From assembly GCA_046260175.1 (NCBI GenBank), contig JBHEPS010000001.1:3502-67501 (forward strand): a DNA stretch of 64,000 nt. Reading direction: 5' to 3'. Below are positions 428 through 22,182 of the stretch, in pieces (position 1 is the first letter of the stretch; each line of letters starts with the position of its first letter). The stretch comes from Thermoanaerobaculia bacterium. Lineage in GTDB: Bacteria; Acidobacteriota; Thermoanaerobaculia; Gp7-AA8. The position numbers and the translations under genes were made by a program. The notes under the pieces were generated by a model that searched no databases, was not told the origin of the DNA, and saw only the letters and a list, made by a program, of their open reading frames with translations.

Positions 428-946
428 ATGGGCACCAGAAAGCAGGCGCTGGAGCAGGAGGTCGAACGCTTCCGCGAGTATCTCCAGCGGCAGGGGCTCA
501 AGCTCACCAACGAGCGCGATGCCCTCGTGCGCGAAATCTTCTCGACCCACTATCACTTCGAGGCCGATGAGCTCCTGATCAAGCTGAAGGAGAAGACCAT
601 CAAGATCTCGCGGGCGACGATTTACCGTACGCTCGAGCTTCTGGTGAAATCGGGGATGGTCCGCCGCGTCCACCTCGGTGAAGATCACTACCACTACGAG
701 CGAGTGATGGGGGACGACGCTCACCACGATCACCTGATCTGCACCGCGTGCGGGGCCGTAATCGAGTTTCACGACGAGGCTCTCGAGACCCGCCAGCTCG
801 AGATCTGCGAGAAGAACCACTTCACGCCCACCTTTCACAACCTCCAGATTCTCGGCATCTGCTCGAGCTGCAGGCGAAAGGGTGAGGAGCCGGAAGCTCC
901 CGATCGGATGATGAAGTATCCGACCGCCGTGGATCTGCGCCGGTAG
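428..946 (+). CDS. fur: Fur-family metal-responsive transcriptional regulator (Fur/Zur/PerR)
   Basis: Winged-helix N-terminus (ISRATIYRTLELLVKSGMV). Metal-binding HHDH plus a CxxC pair (HHDHLICTACG; ICSSC). Length and layout match the Fur family. Which subtype (Fur, Zur or PerR) is not resolved. Confidence 0.8.
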   Translation: MGTRKQALEQEVERFREYLQRQGLKLTNERDALVREIFSTHYHFEADELLIKLKEKTIKISRATIYRTLELLVKSGMVRRVHLGEDHYHYERVMGDDAHHDHLICTACGAVIEFHDEALETRQLEICEKNHFTPTFHNLQILGICSSCRRKGEEPEAPDRMMKYPTAVDLRR

Positions 947-1050
947 GGACCGCCTGCGGCGCTCCGGTCGCCGGAGGCGACGGGTTTTCTTTTCGCCGCA
1001 GGTACGCCCGTCGCGCTGCGCGCGACCGGACCGGCGCAGCCGGTCCCTAC
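943..1050. repeat. REP/MITE-like 108-bp palindromic element (copy 1) with termini GTAGGGACCGCCTGCGGCG ... CCGGCGCAGCCGGTCCCTAC
   Basis: The terminal inverted repeats GTAGGGACC and GGTCCCTAC enclose nested hairpins (CCTGCGGCG/CGCCGCAGG; CTCCGG-TCG-CCGGAG). The element fills the whole gap between convergent fur and gltX. The TAG of each terminus is the stop codon of the flanking gene. A second copy lies at 3871-3979. Confidence 0.6.
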
Positions 1051-2938: not shown

Positions 2939-3414
2939 GGGTCTCCCGAAGTGGAATGACCCTCGTCGAGCTCGTCGTCGCGATGGCGGTCTTTTCGATT
3001 TTCATGGTCATTCTCGCCCTGATCGCGGCGGATTTCGCCAACCTGGAGCGAGGGGTTCGCTTCCGGTGGTTTCTGCACCCGGACGACACAGCCGTGATCG
3101 CTCGATTGCGCCGGGACGTTCTCGACAGCACCGGCTATCCGATCGAACACGCGGGAGAGATGCAGTCCCCCCGGCACCTGATTCTGTCGATGGGAGCGGG
3201 AAACACCGTGACGTGGACGTTCACGCAGGATCGCGCGGTGCGTGGCGAATGGAAAGGTTCGGCCAAGCAAGGGGAGTGGAGCGCGAATGCGACGCGAGAC
3301 TTCTCCATCGGATCGTGGAGCACCCCCAACGAGGAGACCGCGGTGAGGGTCTCGGGAAGGAGCAGCGATGGATCGCTCGTCGTCGATCAGGTCTTCGTTC
3401 CGAGGCCGGACTGA
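2932..3414 (+). CDS. Prepilin-type pseudopilin; TTG/GTG start overlapping the stop of the upstream gene
   Basis: Leader MVRVSRSG | MTLVELVVAMAVFSIFMVILAL is the prepilin methylation motif. The 4-nt overlap with the preceding pseudopilin gene suggests co-translation. Confidence 0.6.
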   Translation: MVRVSRSGMTLVELVVAMAVFSIFMVILALIAADFANLERGVRFRWFLHPDDTAVIARLRRDVLDSTGYPIEHAGEMQSPRHLILSMGAGNTVTWTFTQDRAVRGEWKGSAKQGEWSANATRDFSIGSWSTPNEETAVRVSGRSSDGSLVVDQVFVPRPD

Positions 3415-3787
3415 ACGCGGCTTTGCGCTGATCACCGCGCTGCTTCTCGCCATCCTCTTTCTCGGGATGATCGAGTTGGCTCTCGCAGACGCGACAGCGG
3501 CACAGCGAGAGGCGCGCCGCTTTCGGGAACGGATCTCCAGCCAGATCCTCGCCGACAATGCGATCGAGCTCGCGGCGGCGGGAATGCTGACCAAGCAGAG
3601 CAACAGCAGCGTCGAGCGCGAGACCGACGCCGGAACGATGAAGGGTTCCTTCAAGATACTTCCGGGCAGCCGATTCGAGCTCGTGGGCGATGGCCTGAGC
3701 GCGGGCCTCGAGGTTCGCGCGACGGTCGTGCTCGAGGGGCGGGTGGTCGGAAACCAGATCGTCATCCAGAAGAGCCGGACCCGTTAG
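3368..3787 (+). CDS. Prepilin-type pseudopilin (third of three)
   Basis: Leader ...RGRTERG | FALITALLLAILFLGMIELALA. It overlaps the upstream gene, so the three form one operon. Confidence 0.6.
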   Translation: MDRSSSIRSSFRGRTERGFALITALLLAILFLGMIELALADATAAQREARRFRERISSQILADNAIELAAAGMLTKQSNSSVERETDAGTMKGSFKILPGSRFELVGDGLSAGLEVRATVVLEGRVVGNQIVIQKSRTR

Positions 3788-3792
3788 AAGAC

Positions 3793-3828
3793 AGGGGCTA
3801 GGGGCTAGGGGTCAGGGGCTGGGGGAGG
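3793..3828 (+). repeat. G-quadruplex-forming repeat (GGGGCTAGGGGCTAGGGGTCAGGGGCTGGGGG); the G-rich strand is the + strand
   Basis: Five G4-5 runs with 3-nt loops, a canonical G4 motif. It starts 6 nt after the stop of the + strand pseudopilin gene. A near-identical copy lies in inverted orientation at 10527-10561. Confidence 0.7.
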
Positions 3829-3870
3829 TGGCGCCTCGTTGCGGCGCGCGTTTGATCGGGTGGATCAGAC

Positions 3871-3979
3871 GTAGGGACCGCCTGCGGCGGTCCGGCGGGC
3901 GAAGCCCGCGTGCCGGTGCAACCGCGTCCTCGTCCACGTTGCCGCCTGCGGCGGCGGGGCCGGCGCAGCCGGCTCCTAC
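3871..3979. repeat. REP/MITE-like element (copy 2), same termini family as 943-1050
   Basis: Starts GTAGGGACCGCCTGCGGCG and ends CCGGCGCAGCCGGCTCCTAC. Both ends are shared with copy 1. The interior differs but is again palindromic (CCTGCGGCGG...CCGCCTGCGGCGG). Confidence 0.55.
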
Positions 3980-4022
3980 ATCGATTCCTCGGTGATATAA
4001 GGGCCGTCGCCCCGAACCTGCC

Positions 4023-4844
4023 ATGAATTTCACTCGGATGACGCTCCTGGCCGTTGCGCTCATGTTGAGCGGCTGTATCGCGGGGGAGAGGTCCGTCCCG
4101 CGGGTCAGGATTGCGACCACGACGAGCCTCGAGAACTCAGGGCTTCTCGAGCAGATGCGGATCGCGTTTCGGTCCGACACCGGAATCGAGATCGAAGCGC
4201 ACGTGGTCGGATCGGGGAAGGCTCTTCAACTGGCCCGCGACGGAACCGTGGAACTGGCGATCACGCACGAGCCGGAAGGGGAAGCGGAGCTGGCTCGGAC
4301 GGGGCGGGTTGAAGAGCAGGCTCTGCTGATGGCCAACAGCTTCATTCTCGTCGGCCCGCCCGGAAATCCGGCTGGCGTTTTGCTGGACGCAACCGTAGTG
4401 GATGCGATGCGGCTCGTTCACAGCGCGGAAGCGATCTTCGTTTCTCGGGGAGACGAGTCGGGTACGCATGTCCGGGAGATGGAACTGTGGGCCGGTCTCG
4501 ACCTGGACCCCGAGAGGAATGAGGGATACCGCCGAATGGGGCAGGGAATGAGTGCGCTGTTGCGATCGGCGTCGGAGCTTCAGGGTTACGCACTCACGGA
4601 TGACACGACTTTCGAAGCGATGAAGCCGGTATTGCGGCTCGAGGAGTTTGCGGGTGGCGGAAACGGGTCGGCCAACGTCTATAGCGTCACCCTGCTTCGG
4701 GAGCGTGCAGGGCGCGCGTCGCCCGAAGCGAGGGCGTTTTACGACTGGCTGCTGTCGGAGAGAGGGCAGGAGCTGATCGGAGCCTTTCGCCGGGGATCGA
4801 AAGGAAGCTTTGTTCCGCGTGAAAAGGTTCATCCGATATCGTAG
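4023..4844 (+). CDS. Periplasmic substrate-binding lipoprotein, TupA/WtpA-like (tungstate/molybdate-type PBP); orphan, with no adjacent permease or ATPase
   Basis: Lipoprotein signal (LLAVALMLSGC). The conserved RIATTTSLENSGLL and GSGKALQLARDG motifs are those of COG2998 anion-binding SBPs. Confidence 0.55.
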   Translation: MNFTRMTLLAVALMLSGCIAGERSVPRVRIATTTSLENSGLLEQMRIAFRSDTGIEIEAHVVGSGKALQLARDGTVELAITHEPEGEAELARTGRVEEQALLMANSFILVGPPGNPAGVLLDATVVDAMRLVHSAEAIFVSRGDESGTHVREMELWAGLDLDPERNEGYRRMGQGMSALLRSASELQGYALTDDTTFEAMKPVLRLEEFAGGGNGSANVYSVTLLRERAGRASPEARAFYDWLLSERGQELIGAFRRGSKGSFVPREKVHPIS

Positions 4845-4929
4845 GATGGGGCGACCTCAGCGGCGGGAGAGATCGGTAGGTCCGGGGTGGAGATCGACCC
4901 GGCATACTCGGTTCTGAGCCGATTCTCGA

Positions 4930-6969
4930 ATGTCAGAAGCGAGCAGAATGATCTACGGCACCCTCATCGCCCAGGGGATCGGGGCGGTGGTCCTCGCCAT
5001 TCTCCTGCACAGTTTTCATCGCCATTACGGCAAGACCTATCTCCATCGATGGGCATGGAGTTGGTGGATGCTGGCGGTATTCGCCCTGGCGAGCGTCGGC
5101 GCGCGCTGGATGGCCCTCGACGGAGTTCCCACCATGCCGGCAGCGATCGGGCTTTCCGTCGCGCGCGGGGTGGCGGGCTATCTTCACGTCGGGTTGATGG
5201 CTCTGGGCGGGTGGGAACTGGCGCAGAGGAGGCCGGTTCGACTTCAGGCCACCCGGCGATTCCTCTGGGGTCTCGCGATCGCCGGCACCCTGTTGCCTCT
5301 GATGTTCGCGTTCGATCCCGAGGCGAGCCAGGAGCGGTATCACCTCCGATTCTCCCTTCAGGCGCTGGTCGCCGCGATCCTGCTGGTCGGGACGGGTATT
5401 GCCGTCCTGCGCAGGCGCGAGTCCGACGGCGGCCTCGGACTAACCGTCGTCGGCGTGGGGCTCGTCCTCTACGGTACGCAGCAGGGTCATTACCTTCTGA
5501 TCGCGGTGACGGGGTTCGGCCGGGAGTACGCCTCGTATCTCGCTTACATCGATTTCATTCTTCACAGCTTCCTCGGTCTGGGAATGATCACCTGCCTTCT
5601 CGAGGACGAGCGACAGGCGGCCGTCCTGGCGAGCAAAGAGATCGAGCACCTCGCCTATCACGACGCGCTCACCGGCCTTCCCAATCGCCCTCTCTTCATC
5701 GACCGGCTGATCGTCGCCGTCGCCCATAGCGCCCGACGGCATCAGACCCTCGCGGTGTTCTTCCTCGATGTCGACCGCTTCAAGGACATCAACGACACCC
5801 TGGGGCACTCGCACGGGGATTCGCTGCTCAAGGCCCTGGCTCTGCGGATCCGCCACTGCGTACGGGAAGAGGACACGGTCGCCCGATTCGGAGGGGACGA
5901 GTTCACACTCCTCTGTCAGCGCGTAGAAAGCGCGGAAGATGCCGCGAAGATCGCGCAGAAGCTGCTCCAGGCGGTCAAGCAGCCGTTCACCGTCGGTGAT
6001 CACGAGCTCTACGTTTCGGTCAGCGTCGGCATCAGTTTCTACCCCACCGACGGCGTGGATGCCGAGTCGCTCGTCAAGAACGCCGATACGGCGATGTACC
6101 GAGCCAAAGACCACGGCAGGGACAACTATCAGATCTATGCCCCCGCGATGAACGCGCGCGCGCTGGAGAGGCTCGCGCGCGAGAACCTTCTTCGCCGCGC
6201 GCTCGATAACAACGAGATGGAGATCTATTACCAGCCGCTCATCGACCTGCCGAACCGTCGGGTCTGTGGAGCGGAGGCGCTGCTCCGGTGGCGGCACCCT
6301 GAAGAGGGACTCCTCACGCCCTATCACTTCATCGGCGCACTCGAGAGCTCGGGGCTGATCATCCCGGTCGGCGACTGGGTTCTCAGGGAAGCCTGCCGTC
6401 AGGCAACCGAATGGAAAGCCAGACACGGTGTCGAGCTCAGCGTCGCGGTGAATCTCTCTGAGCGGCAGTTTCAACAGCCGGACCTGGTCGATCGAGTTCG
6501 AGCTGCGCTCGAGGAGACAGGGCTTCCCGCCGGGCAGCTGGAGCTCGAGATCACCGAGAACAACGCGATGCAGAATGCCGAGAACAGTATCCGGACCCTA
6601 TGGGAGCTCAAGCGCCTCGGAATCCGGATCGCCGTCGACGATTTTGGTACAGGCTACTCCTCGCTCAGTTACCTCAAACGATTCCCGATCGACACGCTGA
6701 AGCTCGATCAGTCGTTCGTCCGGGACGTGACCGACGACCCGGGCGACGCGGCAATCGCCACCGCCGTCATCTCGATGGCGAAGACCCTCAATCTCACGCT
6801 CGTGGCCGAGGGAGTGGAGACCGAAGGGCAGCTCGCGTTCTTCCGGGAGAGGCAATGTCCGCGTCTTCAGGGCTATCTCTTCAGTCGGCCCCTTCCGGCG
6901 TCGGACTTCGATATATTCGTCGGCCACGGGATGCCGATACCGGCTTTCGAGAACACCGGAGCGAGCTGA
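4930..6969 (+). CDS. Membrane sensor diguanylate cyclase/phosphodiesterase (multi-TM N-terminal domain, then GGDEF, then EAL)
   Basis: Five to seven N-terminal TM helices. GGDEF motif (RFGGDEF). EAL domain motifs (EALLRW, DDFGTGYSSLSYL, KLDQSFV). Confidence 0.85.
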   Translation: MSEASRMIYGTLIAQGIGAVVLAILLHSFHRHYGKTYLHRWAWSWWMLAVFALASVGARWMALDGVPTMPAAIGLSVARGVAGYLHVGLMALGGWELAQRRPVRLQATRRFLWGLAIAGTLLPLMFAFDPEASQERYHLRFSLQALVAAILLVGTGIAVLRRRESDGGLGLTVVGVGLVLYGTQQGHYLLIAVTGFGREYASYLAYIDFILHSFLGLGMITCLLEDERQAAVLASKEIEHLAYHDALTGLPNRPLFIDRLIVAVAHSARRHQTLAVFFLDVDRFKDINDTLGHSHGDSLLKALALRIRHCVREEDTVARFGGDEFTLLCQRVESAEDAAKIAQKLLQAVKQPFTVGDHELYVSVSVGISFYPTDGVDAESLVKNADTAMYRAKDHGRDNYQIYAPAMNARALERLARENLLRRALDNNEMEIYYQPLIDLPNRRVCGAEALLRWRHPEEGLLTPYHFIGALESSGLIIPVGDWVLREACRQATEWKARHGVELSVAVNLSERQFQQPDLVDRVRAALEETGLPAGQLELEITENNAMQNAENSIRTLWELKRLGIRIAVDDFGTGYSSLSYLKRFPIDTLKLDQSFVRDVTDDPGDAAIATAVISMAKTLNLTLVAEGVETEGQLAFFRERQCPRLQGYLFSRPLPASDFDIFVGHGMPIPAFENTGAS

Positions 6970-7697
6970 TGAGCAAACGAGCTCTCCGCACCCCTCTCAT
7001 CGCTCTCCTCTTCGTGGCCTGCTCGCACGGGGGAACCGCAATCCCCCCGAACGAGTACGGGCTTCCCGTCGTTGGTGAGCGCCGTCTGTACCACCGCCTC
7101 GTCGAAGTCGATCCGGATCAGGTCCTCGTTCCGCTGACGCAGGCCAGTCCGAATATCCAGCTCGACATCCGCTATGCGACCACCGACAACTTCATGAAGA
7201 CCAGGCTGTATCCGAAACCCGAGGCGTGGGCGCGCTGCGAAGTCGCTCTCGCGCTTGCCCGGGTCCAGAGCTCGCTCGAGCCGCGAGGGATCGGGCTGAA
7301 GGTCTTCGACGCCTACCGTCCCTACTCGGTGACCGTGGCGATGTGGGAGCCGATCCGCGACCCCGATTACGTCGCGGACCCGGCGAGAGGCTCTAGGCAC
7401 AATCGCGGCGCGGCGATCGACGTCACCCTCGTCGATCTGGCGACCGGGGAGGAGCTCCCGATGCCCACCCCCTACGACGATTTCACTCCTGCAGCGGGCC
7501 ACGAAGCCTCGGACCTGCCTCTCGCCGCGCTCCAGAATCGCGCCATCCTGCGCGGGGCCATGGAAGCCGAGGGATTCGAGGCACTCGGTTCCGAGTGGTG
7601 GCATTACGACTACCGGGGGTGGGAGAGGTTCCCTCTCATGAACCTTTCGCACAGGGAGCTCGAGCCTCAACGGGCGGCCTGTCCAGCGGCGGACTGA
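6969..7697 (+). CDS. D-alanyl-D-alanine dipeptidase (VanX/DdpX family, M15D), lipoprotein
   Basis: ATGA overlap with the upstream stop. Lipoprotein signal (LLFVACSHG). VanX signatures are DIRYATTDNF, GLKVFDAYRPYS, HNRGAAIDVTL and EWWHYD. Confidence 0.75.
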   Translation: MSKRALRTPLIALLFVACSHGGTAIPPNEYGLPVVGERRLYHRLVEVDPDQVLVPLTQASPNIQLDIRYATTDNFMKTRLYPKPEAWARCEVALALARVQSSLEPRGIGLKVFDAYRPYSVTVAMWEPIRDPDYVADPARGSRHNRGAAIDVTLVDLATGEELPMPTPYDDFTPAAGHEASDLPLAALQNRAILRGAMEAEGFEALGSEWWHYDYRGWERFPLMNLSHRELEPQRAACPAAD

Positions 7698-7709
7698 CCG
7701 GATCGACCG

Positions 7710-9875
7710 CTAATCGTCGCTGTCGAACACCCGCCGGATGCGGGCAAAAAAGCTCTCCACCCGCTGGCGGTTCTGGTCCACCTCGTGCGCCCAGCGGCGG
7801 AACTTGTCGAAGGTGATCGCCGCCGGCTCGTCGAACGACTCCTCGTCGAAGAGGATCTTCCGCGCGATCTGGCCGAGCAAACCTCGCGGGCACTCACGCG
7901 TGGGCGCGGTCCCGGATAGAAACACTTCGCGTCGGGGGCCGGGACATCCCTCGGCCCAGACCCAGCCCGATTGGGGATCGATGTTCCGGAAGACGACACC
8001 CTCCGGCGCGTCGATCTCCTTCCGGCTCGTCTTGATCCGGCTCATGTAGGTCCCCCAGATCGGGACCGCGGCCTCGGCTGACGAGAGCCGAAGCGGAGCT
8101 CCGCGATCGGTACCCACCCATACCGCCGTGACGAGGTCGGGGGTGTATCCGGCGAACCAGGCATCGCGGTAATCGCTCGTCGTTCCCGTTTTTCCCGCCG
8201 TGTGGCCGAGTCCGTATCGGCTCAGACGGCTCGCAGTGCCGCGTCGGACCACGCCCCGCAGCAGCGAGTGCATGACGTAGGCGACCGCCGGAGAAGTGAC
8301 CTCGATTTTCTGCGGCTCGTGACGGTAGAGCAATCTTCCGTTTCGGTCGTGCATCTCTGCGAGCAGGAAAGGATCGGTTCGCGTTCCAAGATTCGGAAAG
8401 ATCGTATAGGCACCCGCGAGCTCTCTCATGGACACTCCGGCCACTCCGAGGGAAAGCGCAGGAACCGCATCGATTTCGCCCTCGAAACCGGCTTCGCGTG
8501 CTCCCGCGACGACCTTGCGCAGACCGACCTCACGGCTGATCCGGATCGCAGGAATGTTCAATGACTTCTCGAATGCCTCGCGCAGGGTCACGCGGCCGCG
8601 AAACCGCTCGTCGTAGTTGTGCGGCTCCCATACGTCGTTGAGAGCGAGCTCGATGCGGAGGGGAGTGTCCTGAATGAGCGTCGCGGGAGTGAAGTTGCGG
8701 GATTCGATTGCCGTCAGATAGGCGAATGGCTTGAAGGCTGAGCCGGGCTGGCGCCTCATTGCCGACGTGCGGTCGAGGCTTCGCGAGCGGGGGTCGGCAC
8801 CGCTGACGAGAGCGCGTACGGCTCCAGTCTCGGGATCGATCGAGAGGAGCGCAGCCTGTACCCGGGCGTCGCCCGCCGCGTCGAGCCAATCGAAGCGCTG
8901 GCGAAGCCGGCGGGTTTCGATCCGGACGGCGCGCTCGGCTTCCTGCTGCATTGCGGGATCGATCGTAGCGACGATGCGCAGCCCGCCCTGGCGCAGAGCC
9001 TCTTCTCCGGCGCGTTCGGCGATCTCGGCGCGCAATGCGTCGAGATAATGCCGCCACGGCGTCTGCGGAAGCCCGCCTCCCGTGAACCGGGCCCGCGTCT
9101 TCAGCGCTTCGTCGTACTGCTCTTCATCGAGCCATCCTTCGTCCTTCATCCGCTCGAGGATGCGGTTCCGTCTCTCGCGGGCGAGCTCCGGGCGCTTCTC
9201 GGGCGTGTCGCGGTTCGGCGCCGGGACGATCGCGGCGATCAGCGCAACCTCGGCAGGGGTGAGTTTCTCGGGAGCCTTGTCGAAGAAGAGGCGGGAAGCC
9301 TCGTCCAGACCGCGGATCGAGTGGCCTCGCTGGTGTCCGAGGTAGACTTCGTTCAGGTAGGCCTCGAGGATCTCGTCCTTCGACATCCTCGCGTCGAGAA
9401 TGACCGCGAGGATCGCCTCGATCGCCTTGCGGCGGTACGTCCGCTCGCTGCTGAGAAGAAGCGACTTGACCAGCTGCTGGTCGATCGTGCTTCCACCCTG
9501 CCCGACCCGGCCCGAGCGAATATTCGAAACCAGAGCGCGCATGATTCCGATCGGATCGATGCCGGGATGGCGCCTGAAGCGAACGTCTTCCGCGGCGATG
9601 AATGCGTTCGGAACGTAGTCCGGGATCTGGTCGAGCAGCACCGGTTCGGTAGCCCGCCAGTCGCCACCGTAGAGCTCGAGAATCGGCTCTCCTTCGCCAT
9701 CGCCGTTCGCGAAGATCAGTGTCGGCGTCTTCCACTGCTGAGCGACGAGGACCTCGGACATCCGATAATTCAGCCATCCGAGATAGAGCGAGAAGAGCTG
9801 AATCGCGATCGCGATCGGCGTCACCGCGATGGCGAGCAGCGTATTTCGACTCATTCTCACGCGTGACATTTGCAC
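7710..9875 (-). CDS. mrcA: Bifunctional class A penicillin-binding protein (glycosyltransferase GT51 plus transpeptidase)
   Basis: N-terminal TM helix. GT51 motifs (EDVRFRRHPGIDPIG, RVGQGGSTIDQQLVK). Transpeptidase motifs SAFKPF (SxxK) and KTGTT. Confidence 0.85.
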   Translation of the reverse strand: MQMSRVRMSRNTLLAIAVTPIAIAIQLFSLYLGWLNYRMSEVLVAQQWKTPTLIFANGDGEGEPILELYGGDWRATEPVLLDQIPDYVPNAFIAAEDVRFRRHPGIDPIGIMRALVSNIRSGRVGQGGSTIDQQLVKSLLLSSERTYRRKAIEAILAVILDARMSKDEILEAYLNEVYLGHQRGHSIRGLDEASRLFFDKAPEKLTPAEVALIAAIVPAPNRDTPEKRPELARERRNRILERMKDEGWLDEEQYDEALKTRARFTGGGLPQTPWRHYLDALRAEIAERAGEEALRQGGLRIVATIDPAMQQEAERAVRIETRRLRQRFDWLDAAGDARVQAALLSIDPETGAVRALVSGADPRSRSLDRTSAMRRQPGSAFKPFAYLTAIESRNFTPATLIQDTPLRIELALNDVWEPHNYDERFRGRVTLREAFEKSLNIPAIRISREVGLRKVVAGAREAGFEGEIDAVPALSLGVAGVSMRELAGAYTIFPNLGTRTDPFLLAEMHDRNGRLLYRHEPQKIEVTSPAVAYVMHSLLRGVVRRGTASRLSRYGLGHTAGKTGTTSDYRDAWFAGYTPDLVTAVWVGTDRGAPLRLSSAEAAVPIWGTYMSRIKTSRKEIDAPEGVVFRNIDPQSGWVWAEGCPGPRREVFLSGTAPTRECPRGLLGQIARKILFDEESFDEPAAITFDKFRRWAHEVDQNRQRVESFFARIRRVFDSDD

Positions 9876-9966
9876 CGGCTTCGCCTACATTCTGATGGTT
9901 GCATCCTGTAAGCAACGTAACTGCCACGGGTCGAGATTGCAGGCGTCGAAAGGAGAGGGAAACCCT

Positions 9967-10437
9967 ATGGCCACCAAGAAGGCCTCCAAGAAGAAGCGTG
10001 CGGTGAAGAAAGCCGCCCCTGCGAAGGCCGGTAAGGCTTCGAGGAAATCCGCGAAAAGGAAACCCGCGAAAGCAGCATCGAAAAAGAAATCGACTGCTAA
10101 AAAGTCGGCGCGACCCGCCGCCAAAAAAGCCGGCGCGAGGCCGGCAAGAAAAACCGCTCGGAAGCCGGCCAGAAAGACCGCTCGGAAGCCGGCAGCCAGA
10201 AAGACCGCCAGAAAGCCGGCGGCGAAGAAGGCGGTTAAGAGACGCTCCACCGGGGCCTCGAAGCGCTCCACGAAGAAGGTCTCCGCCAGAAAGACCACCC
10301 GGCGAGCCGGAACGAAGTCACGCACAAAGAAGAAAACCGTGATTCAGAAGGCTCAGAGCGTAGTCGGTCGCGCGGTCGACGCCGTGAAGGAAGCCGCTTC
10401 CGACGTCAAGGATACGGTCACCTCGATCGTCACCTGA
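9967..10437 (+). CDS. Histone H1-like Lys/Ala-rich nucleoid protein
   Basis: Strong RBS (AAAGGAGAGGG) 8 nt upstream of the ATG. The 157-aa protein is about 40% Lys/Arg/Ala with ARKTARKP repeats and a C-terminal globular tail. A rho-independent terminator follows. The longer upstream extension in the six-frame track is not supported. Confidence 0.7.
   Translation: MATKKASKKKRAVKKAAPAKAGKASRKSAKRKPAKAASKKKSTAKKSARPAAKKAGARPARKTARKPARKTARKPAARKTARKPAAKKAVKRRSTGASKRSTKKVSARKTTRRAGTKSRTKKKTVIQKAQSVVGRAVDAVKEAASDVKDTVTSIVT
10144..10225. repeat. Tandem 24-nt coding repeat (AGAAAGACCGCTCGGAAGCCGGC-like, about 3.5 copies) inside the H1-like gene
   Basis: The direct repeats are seen in the sequence and encode the ARKTARKP octapeptide units. 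Confidence 0.6.
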
Positions 10438-10459
10438 ACCGCCGTTCCAACAAGTCATC

Positions 10460-10493
10460 AAACGTGAAAAGGCCCGGCTCGCAGCCGGGCCTT
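10460..10493 (+). terminator. Rho-independent terminator after the H1-like gene
   Basis: AAAAGGCCCGGCTCGCAGCCGGGCCTTTTCATG: a GC-rich 10-bp stem followed by a T tract. Confidence 0.75.
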
Positions 10494-10526
10494 TTCATGT
10501 TCACGGCAACGCCCGAATTTGCTTTC

Positions 10527-10561
10527 CCTAGCCCCTGACCCCTAGCCCCCAGCCCCTGCTC
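10527..10561 (-). repeat. G-quadruplex-forming repeat; the G-rich strand is the minus strand (inverted copy of 3793-3828)
   Basis: The + strand reads CCCTAGCCCCTGACCCCTAGCCCCCAGCCCCTGCTC. The reverse complement is GAGCAGGGGCTGGGGGCTAGGGGTCAGGGGCTAGGG. It starts 7 nt after the stop of the minus-strand gene 10565-11638. Confidence 0.7.
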
Positions 10562-10564
10562 TTA

Positions 10565-11638
10565 TCACTGGACCGTGGCGAAGAAGTTCTGAACGCGTTT
10601 CGGGAAGTAATTGGAATCGAGTCTTCCGTTGCCGTGCTGACGAGCTTTCCGGAAAGCGTCGATCGCCGCCTGCTCTTCCCGGTCGTTGGTCTGTCCGCTC
10701 AGGTACCAGTTGTAGTAATGGGACGCGCCGAGGAATGCCCAGAGCAGCGAGTTCTCGCGCTCTTCGTTCGCGAGACGGTCGAAGGCCTGAATCGATCGGG
10801 TGAAGTCTCCCGAAAAGTACGCCTCGACGGCTGCCCGGACGCGCTGCCTCTTCTGCGAAAGCGCATCCTCGGTTGCCGCAGTTGCGACTTTCGCCGTCGT
10901 CGGCTCCTTGCTCGCCTTCTGCTGGGCGATCTGGTTCTTCGTGATCGCGAGATTGAGGGTCGACAGGGCGCGATTGGCCGTCTTCTCAACCGCGATCCAG
11001 TCCGAAGCCGTGTCGGCCTGTGCCGAGTCCTGCTGAGCCGAGAGCATCAGGCGCTCCCCGTCGGCGAACTCCGGTTGAGAGCCGGCCCTTGCCCGGCGAG
11101 CCTTTTCGTGGGCATCGCGCGCGGCGGTAAGGGCCTCGCGCGCCCGCGATCGTGCGGGGGCGAGATTCGGATCGATCTGGGGTTGCTGGGTGACGGTGGT
11201 CGTAGGAGTGACCGGTTGCTGAATAGGCGGCTGCTGAGCGACCGTCGTCGTGGGGACCTCGGGCTGACTCTGCCTGGCGAGTTGCATCTCCGCGCGTCCG
11301 AGGATTGAATCAGGCGCGCCGAGCTTCACGGATCCCTGACCCGTCGCTTTGCGAAGGTCCTCGATCCCGGCTTCGAGATTCCCGAGCTCGACGTTCGCCA
11401 GCCCTCGGTAATAGTAGGGGTGGTAGGCGATGAACCCGGTGCCCGTCGTCCTCTCGCGGGCGTTCTCCTTCGGCCGCGCCTTGATGGCCGCCGACATCTT
11501 CTGAACCACGACCGACCACTGCCCGCTCTGAGCCGCTTTCAGCCCTGCCTCGTAGTCGTCGAGCCAGTCCGCCTCCGCCGGCGCGGCGGCGAGCGTGAGG
11601 AGCATCGCAGCGACGATCAGGATGCGGACACGAATCAT
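10565..11638 (-). CDS. Secreted hypothetical protein with TPR-like segments; last gene of the kinase operon
   Basis: Signal peptide (MIRVRILIVAAMLLTLAAAPAEA). A Gln/Pro/Thr-rich linker. TPR-like helices (YYYRGLANVELGNLEAGIEDL; WAFLGASHYYNWYLSG). It overlaps the upstream kinase stop by 4 nt. Confidence 0.5.
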   Translation of the reverse strand: MIRVRILIVAAMLLTLAAAPAEADWLDDYEAGLKAAQSGQWSVVVQKMSAAIKARPKENARERTTGTGFIAYHPYYYRGLANVELGNLEAGIEDLRKATGQGSVKLGAPDSILGRAEMQLARQSQPEVPTTTVAQQPPIQQPVTPTTTVTQQPQIDPNLAPARSRAREALTAARDAHEKARRARAGSQPEFADGERLMLSAQQDSAQADTASDWIAVEKTANRALSTLNLAITKNQIAQQKASKEPTTAKVATAATEDALSQKRQRVRAAVEAYFSGDFTRSIQAFDRLANEERENSLLWAFLGASHYYNWYLSGQTNDREEQAAIDAFRKARQHGNGRLDSNYFPKRVQNFFATVQ

Positions 11639-21822: not shown

Positions 21823-22032
21823 ATGACGATCCGGATCAAGGTCAAGACGAACGGCCCTTTCATCGTGGATGGTGAGTTCGTCCTCGTCGACGAACAGGGA
21901 AATGAGATCGAGCAGGTCAAGAAGGCGCTCTGCCGTTGCGGGGGCTCCACAACCAGGCCGTTCTGCGACGGAACCCACTCGAAGATCGGCTTCCAGGGAG
22001 CGAGCGAGGCCGTCCGCAGGGAGAATGAATAG
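21823..22032 (+). CDS. CDGSH-type iron-sulfur domain protein (mitoNEET-like)
   Basis: CRCGGSTTRPFCDGTHSKIGF matches the CDGSH motif C-x-C-x2-(S/T)-x3-P-x-C-D-G-(S/A/T)-H. Confidence 0.75.
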   Translation: MTIRIKVKTNGPFIVDGEFVLVDEQGNEIEQVKKALCRCGGSTTRPFCDGTHSKIGFQGASEAVRRENE

Positions 22033-22182
22033 GACGAATAGGACCTAGAGGACGAATAGGACGCATAGGTGGGACGGGCGGGGCGTCTACCCTGCCTGAA
22101 GCCGGAACCCGGTCTTGCCTGAAGTCCGCAGTGCCGGAGGTCTTGAAAGTCCTATGAGTCCTATAGGTCCTATTCGTCCTAC
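22028..22182. repeat. 155-bp structured element: imperfect inverted arrays of the heptamer ATAGGAC (left arm 22028-22068, right arm 22149-22182) flanking a 80-bp core with internal direct repeats (GCCTGAAGCCGG / GCCTGAAGTCCG)
   Basis: Seen directly in the sequence. The left arm is AATAGGACGAATAGGACCTAGAGGACGAATAGGACGCATAGG. The right arm is its reverse complement with 3 mismatches. The element begins inside the CDGSH stop codon. Confidence 0.65.

Follow-up and report, generated by a model that had tools for sequence, protein, structure and literature searches.

Two G-rich heptanucleotide arrays directly follow stop codons

We analysed a 64-kb stretch of contig JBHEPS010000001.1 (hereafter the window) from a 64%-GC metagenome-assembled genome (MAG) of Thermoanaerobaculia (Acidobacteriota), and focused on two short G-rich arrays that lie in inverted orientation about 6.7 kb apart (Table 1). 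Array 1 (GGGGCTAGGGGCTAGGGGTCAGGGGCTGGGGG) begins 6 nucleotides (nt) past the TAG of the open reading frame (ORF) that closes a pseudopilin-like cluster, in which N-methyl motifs are found (Pfam N_methyl), and a solute-binding-protein gene begins 197 nt past the end of the array. Array 2 (GGGGCTGGGGGCTAGGGGTCAGGGGCTAGGG), read as the reverse complement of the deposited strand, begins 8 nt past the TGA of the last ORF in a cluster of FHA and Ser/Thr-kinase genes; this TGA is followed in frame by a TAA, and the array stands 5 nt beyond the TAA. Both upstream ORFs are real genes, recovered by independent gene calls and present in the same places in relatives. The protein P0001, which matches the 357-aa product of the gene before array 2, comes from a Thermoanaerobaculia MAG, and other homologues range from 91% down to ~35% identity. 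An exact look-up of the 357-aa protein gave no record; source and relatives were recognised by homology search. Both arrays are G-rich on the sense strand and are opposite to each other on the DNA. Because GC skew is positive over the whole window, the arrays are opposite with respect to replication and alike with respect to the upstream gene.

The two copies had been noticed in an original prediction made from the sequence of the window. Both proved to be real and to lie on the sense strand immediately 3' of genuine genes, as it had described, and its spacing of 6-7 nt after the stop codon was approximately right; its coordinates (3793-3828 and 10527-10561) were off by one to five bases. It had also given each array five tracts of at least four Gs with 3-nt loops. 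The five tracts stand, with two corrections: the last tract of array 2 is GGG, and one loop in each array is 2 nt long if the adjoining tract is read as GGGGG. The gene labels it had assigned agree with Pfam, namely N_methyl pseudopilins, Ser/Thr kinases and FHA, PBP_like_2, GGDEF-EAL, Peptidase_M15, and transglycosylase/transpeptidase.

The repeat unit of both arrays is a 7-nt GGGGYYR (Y, pyrimidine; R, purine) in head-to-tail tandem, with a period of 7 and 4.7 and 4.6 copies for arrays 1 and 2 by Tandem Repeats Finder. The arrays have an exact 20-mer in common, for which shuffled sequences gave an expectation of 0 matches, and when placed in register 29 of 31 positions are equal. No other motif in the 64 kb has at least four runs of at least four Gs, and the two arrays give its top two G4Hunter scores (2.6 and -2.6 in 25-nt windows). 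When G-quadruplex (G4) formation was allowed in ViennaRNA, array 1 folded into a four-layer G4 at -32.5 kcal/mol against -7.0 for its best hairpin, and array 2 likewise at -30.6 kcal/mol against -7.5. The G4 remains in the minimum-free-energy fold when the full 3' untranslated region (UTR) is included, with a margin of more than 20 kcal/mol. By prediction, therefore, arrays 1 and 2 are very strong G4 candidates, as had been proposed.

We compared the arrays with known kinds of post-stop element. As intrinsic terminators they fail, being non-palindromic and lacking a T-run downstream, and they lack the inverted symmetry of repetitive extragenic palindromic (REP) elements. Rfam gave no family at gathering score anywhere in the window. 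What both arrays do resemble is the class of G4-forming heptamer repeats described by Rehm et al. (PMC4692102): a 7-nt tandem unit, one G-tract (at least 3 G) per unit, at least four tracts, sense-strand placement after a stop codon, and unit number and sequence that vary between relatives. A stimulator of stop-codon read-through or frameshifting was also considered and rejected: at site 1 a ribosome that read through would meet another TAG after only 6 more residues, and at site 2 the stops are doubled, as TGA TAA in tandem.

Table 1. Positions of the arrays and of neighbouring features in the window. Loci of the comparison sets carry L numbers.
Feature	Position	Strand	Remarks
Array 1	3794-3825	+	GGGGCTA GGGGCTA GGGGTCA GGGGCTG GGGG; five G-tracts; G4Hunter 2.5
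Array 2	10526-10556	-	GGGGCTG GGGGCTA GGGGTCA GGGGCTA GGG; five G-tracts; G4Hunter 2.35
139-aa gene, last in the pseudopilin-like cluster, ending just before array 1	3368-3787	+	Orthologue independently called in L237, L240 and L242
TAG stop (3785-3787) and 6-nt spacer AAGACA	3785-3793	+	Spacer fits the class consensus (purine-rich, CA end)
REP-like hairpin GTAG-GGACCGCC-TGC-GGCGGTCC	3871-3893	+	45 nt downstream of array 1; second intergenic repeat family
Bidirectional intrinsic-terminator hairpin, 19-nt arms, T-runs on both strands	10461-10501		Between convergent genes, separate from array 2
TGA stop (10567-10565), in-frame TAA (10564-10562) and spacer GAGCA before array 2	10557-10567	-	
357-aa TPR-like gene, last of the FHA/Ser-Thr-kinase cluster, ending just before array 2	10565-11638	-	P0001 100% identical

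The arrays belong to a widespread heptamer family

Within the window there are two copies of this array type, and the GGGGYYR unit is abundant in other genomes. The pattern (GGGGYYR)x3 GGGG occurs in at least 120 IMG/VR contigs, and the matches listed contain the units GGGGTCA, GGGGCTA, GGGGCCA and GGGGTTA in runs of 4 to ~30. The exact 18-mer core GGGGCTAGGGGTCAGGGG was found at a minimum of 116 genome sites; the matches listed belong to Acidobacteriota, Planctomycetota, Chloroflexota (including the closed Herpetosiphon aurantiacus genome), Gemmatimonadota, Methylomirabilota, Proteobacteria, Bacteroidota and some Firmicutes. Because the core is so widespread, the near-identity of arrays 1 and 2 is no evidence of a two-copy element. 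We conclude that each array in the window is an independent member of a widespread G-rich heptanucleotide microsatellite family, which agrees with the suggestion in the original prediction that the copies might mark a repeat family.

G-rich-sense family members usually start 4-7 nt after stop codons

Stop-proximal placement was tested on 427 non-redundant arrays from viral and genome loci (L001-L236). Genes were called with a home-made codon-log-odds caller, which assigned a median of 85% of each locus to coding sequence and reproduced most independent calls. Only 133 of the 427 arrays lie inside called genes, though 83% of the sequence is coding. Among the 252 intergenic arrays with two neighbours, 183 are nearer the gene 5' of the G strand (p = 4e-13). 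Arrays that follow a stop codon in the G-rich sense do so at a median distance of 7 nt (8 nt in the viral set, 7 nt in the genome set), and 73 of 126 start no more than 10 nt past the stop, where uniform placement in the same intergenic region would give 15.4; the observed count was reached in 0 of 20000 simulations. The distances peak at 4-7 nt, with a minor mode at -1 (TAG-GGG) and a steep drop past 9 nt. The spacer is purine-rich and has CA at its end; over positions -6 to -3, A makes up 52-56%, C no more than 10% and T 2-12%. No T-run comes after the arrays.

The opposite orientation behaves differently. Arrays that follow a stop codon in the C-rich sense are not enriched there (19 observed versus 27.5 expected; median distance 65 nt), and before start codons 65 of 126 C-rich-sense arrays lie within 20 nt versus 37.5 expected. 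G-rich-sense arrays avoid start codons (8 observed versus 21.3 expected). Arrays with six or more tracts make up 11 of 79 after stops versus 25 of 78 before starts (p = 0.008), and the after-stop group is tighter, at 4-5 tracts. We do not claim a preference for four units, because longer arrays are likelier to contain the search word and the raw peak at 4-5 tracts is due to this ascertainment. As separate observations, C-rich arrays such as (CCCCTGA)n stand 0-25 nt upstream of starts, mostly ATG (for example in L015, L110, L181, L222 and L146), and a Shine-Dalgarno sequence often comes directly after such an array, or there is no room for one.

Across the arrays of L001-L236 the loops are overwhelmingly YYA, with TCA (423), CTA (218), CCA (191) and TTA (108). 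Their complements on the C-rich strand are TGA, TAG, TGG and TAA, so that ~80% are stop codons, and their recurrence every 7 nt covers all three frames. A complementary C-rich array follows within 80 nt in 27 of 76 cases of an after-stop G array. Examples of such G-then-C pairs are L012, L039/L108, L052, L056, L094, L096, L126 and L169, among others. From its sequence, a pair of this kind could form a long hairpin in which the upstream stop codon and the start that follows are drawn together.

Location at gene ends raises the possibility that the arrays act on transcription, either by signalling a pause or termination or by gating out antisense transcription. The non-template G strand and the RNA could form an R-loop or G4 that halts RNA polymerase as it leaves the gene, or Rho could load on the C-rich RNA that polymerases produce when they enter the gene from outside. 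Several observations fit such a role. Few gene ends in these taxa have a canonical hairpin-plus-T terminator (2.7% of controls, and 1 of 76 after arrays), the pairable C-rich arrays just described would give long hairpins, and the C-rich strand is laden with stop codons. The rule is also set by the side of the G strand on which an ORF lies rather than by the orientation of that ORF, which suits an entry or exit gate. Against a transcriptional role, the arrays are not followed by a T-run. Array 2 is moreover followed, 25 nt downstream, by a canonical terminator of its own (Table 1), which it has in common with the convergent lysine-rich gene and which is conserved in orthologues with and without array 2; array 2 itself is thus not the terminator, and the terminator role offered in the original prediction is unlikely for it. 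Array 1 lies between co-directional genes that abut in the relative L242 (TAGCCATG), and is therefore probably within an operon. Cyanobacteria are not known to have Rho, and we downgraded the Rho gate because the same placement rule is reported in Nostoc. On balance, we consider a transcriptional role distinctly unlikely.

The arrays are gained, eroded or replaced at orthologous sites while their sequence pattern is retained

We compared contigs of twelve relatives in which the gene order across sites 1 and 2 is the same. At site 2, the loops of the window array are CTG, CTA, TCA and CTA; those of L249 are CTA, TCA, TCA and CCA, with one tract decayed to GAGA; those of L237 are CCA, CCA, TCA and CCA, with two tracts shortened to GGGA; and those of L240 are TCA, CCA, TCA and CTA. 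No array was present at site 2 in L241, L252, L253, L246 or L247. In L242-245 and L250 the site is taken up by two GC-rich hairpins with GTAG heads, a doublet of ~105 nt that starts 2 nt past the stop codon. At site 1, L240 has five tracts with loops different from those of the window and L237 has three tracts only, and the flanking genes, which abut in L242, overlap in L246.

The original prediction had presented the copies as an inverted pair that brackets 6.7 kb, and two inverted copies with 29 of 31 matching positions could in principle be the ends of a mobile or recombining unit. The order of genes across the 6.7 kb, however, is alike where arrays are present (L237, L240), where they are absent (L246) and where a REP-like element takes their place (L242), and the sites hold different arrays, three-tract remnants, REP elements or nothing. 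A 6.7-kb unit bounded by the copies is thereby ruled out. We also found neither a transposase nor an integrase between the copies, target-site duplications are absent, GC content is uniform, and both copies are simple tandem repeats, each of which changes independently where it stands. The idea that this is a mobile unit is therefore almost certainly wrong.

All array-bearing loci fall in one clade of a neighbour-joining tree of the 357-aa protein. L250, where a REP-like element replaces the array, and L237, where the array is present, are 97% identical in that protein. It follows from this distribution that the arrays were gained in one clade and then kept, eroded or replaced. The site is not hypervariable, since arrays at the L237-type site are identical in three independent assemblies. 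A metagenome scan with the conserved gene-end pattern for strain-level variants of site 2 returned only the L237 contig and chance matches. Loop differences among orthologues are nearly all C/T transitions, the exception being A/G at the third loop position, and the YYA/R pattern of the loops is thereby retained. In our own count on the alignments, 5-10% of G-tract positions changed versus ~33% of loop positions. The arrays as such thus come and go in evolution, whereas constraint is seen on their G-tracts and YYA loops.

These comparisons bear on the possibility that the arrays are near-neutral products of slippage that have no positive function and are purged from genes and from positions where a G4 would cover a ribosome-binding site. 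Large GC-rich genomes readily generate heptamer microsatellites, presence and absence are polymorphic among relatives at 85-97% protein identity, and the unit-number distribution is roughly geometric once corrected for ascertainment. The depletion of G-sense arrays near downstream starts is what avoidance predicts, and Rehm et al., who found no function, cite a polymerase-slippage hypothesis for heptamers (PMC4692102). Avoidance alone, however, gives no sharp pile-up at 4-7 nt in intergenic regions of ~140 nt. It also leaves without account the purine-rich spacer, the recurrence of the GGGGYYA unit across many phyla and the retention of G-tracts and YYA loops in orthologues, and the identical arrays in three assemblies show that the site is not hypervariable. 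We regard neutral slippage as possible, if on the unlikely side.

Loop variation also bears on whether the arrays could be a heptad platform for a single-strand nucleic-acid-binding protein of the cold-shock or S1 type, with one protein bound per 7 nt. Such a platform would explain the strict 7-nt period despite variable loops, and MacGregor made a proposal of this kind for TAACTGA heptamers, citing the binding of CspB to heptamer repeats (PMC4679880). In the IMG/VR set, loops within a locus are also more alike than loops between loci (0.257 versus 0.143). This similarity is absent from the genome set, where ascertainment confounds the comparison, and genome-specific loop "dialects" are at most a weak observation. 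Within one array as well as from orthologue to orthologue, the loops vary freely so long as they stay YYA, and we identified no candidate protein. We think a protein platform very improbable.

A separate observation concerns the two window arrays, which are closer to each other (29/31) than to their orthologues in relatives at 87-92% protein identity. This hints at a genome-specific preference for certain units or at copying between arrays; other loci are mixed in this respect.

REP-like hairpins occupy the same post-stop niche

The element downstream of array 1 at 3871-3893 is an imperfect palindrome with a GTAG head, as expected of a REP. Related GTAG-headed copies are those that stand in for array 2 in L242-245 and L250. 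From these positions, we conclude that the post-stop niche of the arrays is also occupied by REP-like hairpins. Further copies of the same family, each with an 8-bp hairpin, lie in the window at 943-965 (+) and 1028-1050 (-); their GTAG heads, at 943-946 and 1050-1047, contain the TAG stops of the convergent genes 428-946 and 1047-2462. In L246, a 56%-identity relative, the niche holds yet another repeat type, the third: at 11090-11200, in the same post-stop position at site 2, there is an inverted repeat of GTAAGTAG and CAAGTAG units.

REPs and bacterial interspersed mosaic elements (BIMEs) are like the arrays in being short structured repeats right after stop codons, within operons or between convergent genes. 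They differ in that REPs are imperfect palindromes, form hairpins and are linked to REP-associated tyrosine transposases (RAYTs), whereas the arrays are non-palindromic tandem repeats for which a quadruplex fold is expected. REPs stabilise upstream mRNA against 3' exonucleases. Liang, Rudd and Deutscher are said to have found in 2015 that REPs within ~15 nt of a stop codon interfere with termination.

A proposed model for the arrays as a barrier behind the coding region

We propose a composite explanation that joins membership of the heptamer family with an after-stop RNA G4 acting as a REP-like barrier or insulator. We give this composite model an even chance of being right, and the identity of the arrays is far more secure than the mechanism. 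According to the model, the 3' UTR would begin with the transcribed array, whose RNA would fold into a very stable four-layer G4 that abuts the terminating ribosome. The E. coli ribosome comes to a stop 6 nt short of an RNA G4 (Endoh et al. 2013, PMC3695533). By our own reading, ~3 nt of clearance are needed for a stop codon to reach the A site, and the observed 4-7 nt lie just beyond this distance. With its 5' edge 4-8 nt past the stop codon, the G4 would be beyond the clearance, so the ribosome would still be able to terminate, and the G4 would then be a compact block right behind the coding region. It may act as a REP-like barrier against 3'-to-5' exonucleases and against ribosomes or helicases that move past the stop codon, and in this way would protect or insulate the upstream cistron. 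An array would be dispensable, and other structured elements could take its place. Arrays probably arise and change by replication slippage, with selection then retaining the G-tracts and the pyrimidine-pyrimidine-A loops. The suggestion of an RNA-stability or roadblock element in the original prediction is plausible.

Several points weigh against this model. Arrays are missing at orthologous sites in the close relatives L241, L252 and L242, and they are therefore not essential. Sixteen arrays start 0-3 nt past the stop codon or overlap its last base, and another dozen contain the stop codon itself, from which it follows that the clearance distance is not a strict limit. The C-rich arrays before start codons form a mirror class for which a G4 in the 3' UTR gives no account. 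A preference for four units, which would have spoken for selection on a G4, is gone after ascertainment correction, with a weak shoulder at four among unbiased secondary arrays. The placement statistics depend on home-made gene calls (median coding coverage 85%), both G4 folding and the RNA effect in the source organism are predictions, and Rehm et al. assigned no function to their heptamer repeats (PMC4692102).

A broader reading would take in the mirror class, with heptamer arrays punctuating translated regions across phyla in a way that depends on orientation. A G-rich array in the mRNA could stand at ribosome-clearance distance after the stop, behind a purine spacer that does not pair, and a C-rich array laden with stop codons could stand directly before starts. 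Terminating ribosomes could keep the after-stop G4 unfolded, and it could form only on mRNA that is not being translated, which could make it a translation-coupled switch that sets mRNA decay, Rho access or re-initiation, and paired G and C arrays could bring a stop codon and the next start together. As a whole, we think this punctuation scheme improbable.

Other repeats in the window

Two further repeat features were noted in the window. Tandem arrays with a 9-nt unit lie at 22027-22069 (GAATAGGAC, x4.8) and 22147-22181 (its complement AAGTCCTAT, x3.9); they are inverted, ~80 nt apart, and could pair into a long hairpin. The lysine-rich "H1-like" gene at 9829-10437, which our home-made caller put on the wrong strand, contains 24-27-nt tandem repeats at 10140-10221 within low-complexity Lys/Ala-rich coding sequence.

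Relation to known heptamer repeats

Rehm et al. 2015 (PLoS One, PMC4692102) described G4-forming heptamers with the units GGGAATC in Xanthomonas and GGGGA(C/T)T in Nostoc. These repeats are intergenic, nearly always nearer the 5' neighbouring ORF regardless of its orientation, and lie 0-50 bp after stop codons on the coding strand; G4 formation was observed by circular dichroism and no function was identified (PMC4692102). The arrays described here are alike in their 7-nt tandem units with one G-tract per unit, in array lengths of about four units, in being strongly intergenic and under-represented between divergent genes, and in unit number and sequence that vary at the same site between relatives. 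They are unlike the earlier repeats in their unit, GGGGYYA with loops TCA, CTA, CCA and TTA; in their host, here an Acidobacteriota MAG, with the unit recurring in many phyla and in viral contigs; and in the offset from the stop codon, here resolved to a peak at 4-7 nt with a purine-rich spacer.

A second class is formed by the TAACTGA direct repeats of marine Beggiatoaceae, Cyanobacteria and Bacteroidetes (MacGregor 2015, PMC4679880). These too are intergenic 7-nt direct repeats with 7-nt-step indels between strains, their "forward" strand has stops in three frames and lies a few nt upstream of starts, and the reverse orientation occasionally lies just after stop codons (PMC4679880). The C-rich strand of the GGGGYYR family behaves like this "forward" strand. 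TAACTGA repeats differ in that they are not G-rich and no G4 is possible, and they are mostly upstream of starts, whereas the copies in the window come after stops. Short tandemly repeated repetitive (STRR) heptanucleotides of the cyanobacteria Calothrix and Nostoc, as cited by Rehm et al. (PMC4692102), are likewise tandem and abundant in intergenic regions; their unit sequences differ from GGGGYYR. A literature search by unit sequence, for example GGGGTCA, returned nothing relevant. We conclude that the arrays in the window belong to a heptamer class that has already been described, in a new lineage and with a different unit.

Significance

For the window itself the meaning of these results is modest: it holds two ordinary members of a class, with no new mobile element or regulatory pair. 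The wider interest is in the family. Bacterial G-quadruplex biology has few examples that are natural, recurrent and constrained in position, and the question of what heptameric repeats do dates from at least 2015. The analysis offers a sharper rule that can be tested, with arrays that start 4-7 nt past a stop codon behind a purine-rich spacer and are replaceable by REP hairpins. This placement suggests that the arrays interact with the ribosome at termination or with the 3' end of the mRNA rather than with replication. If that is true, the arrays could be used as compact 3' UTR parts in synthetic biology, and they could help to annotate gene ends in poorly studied GC-rich phyla.

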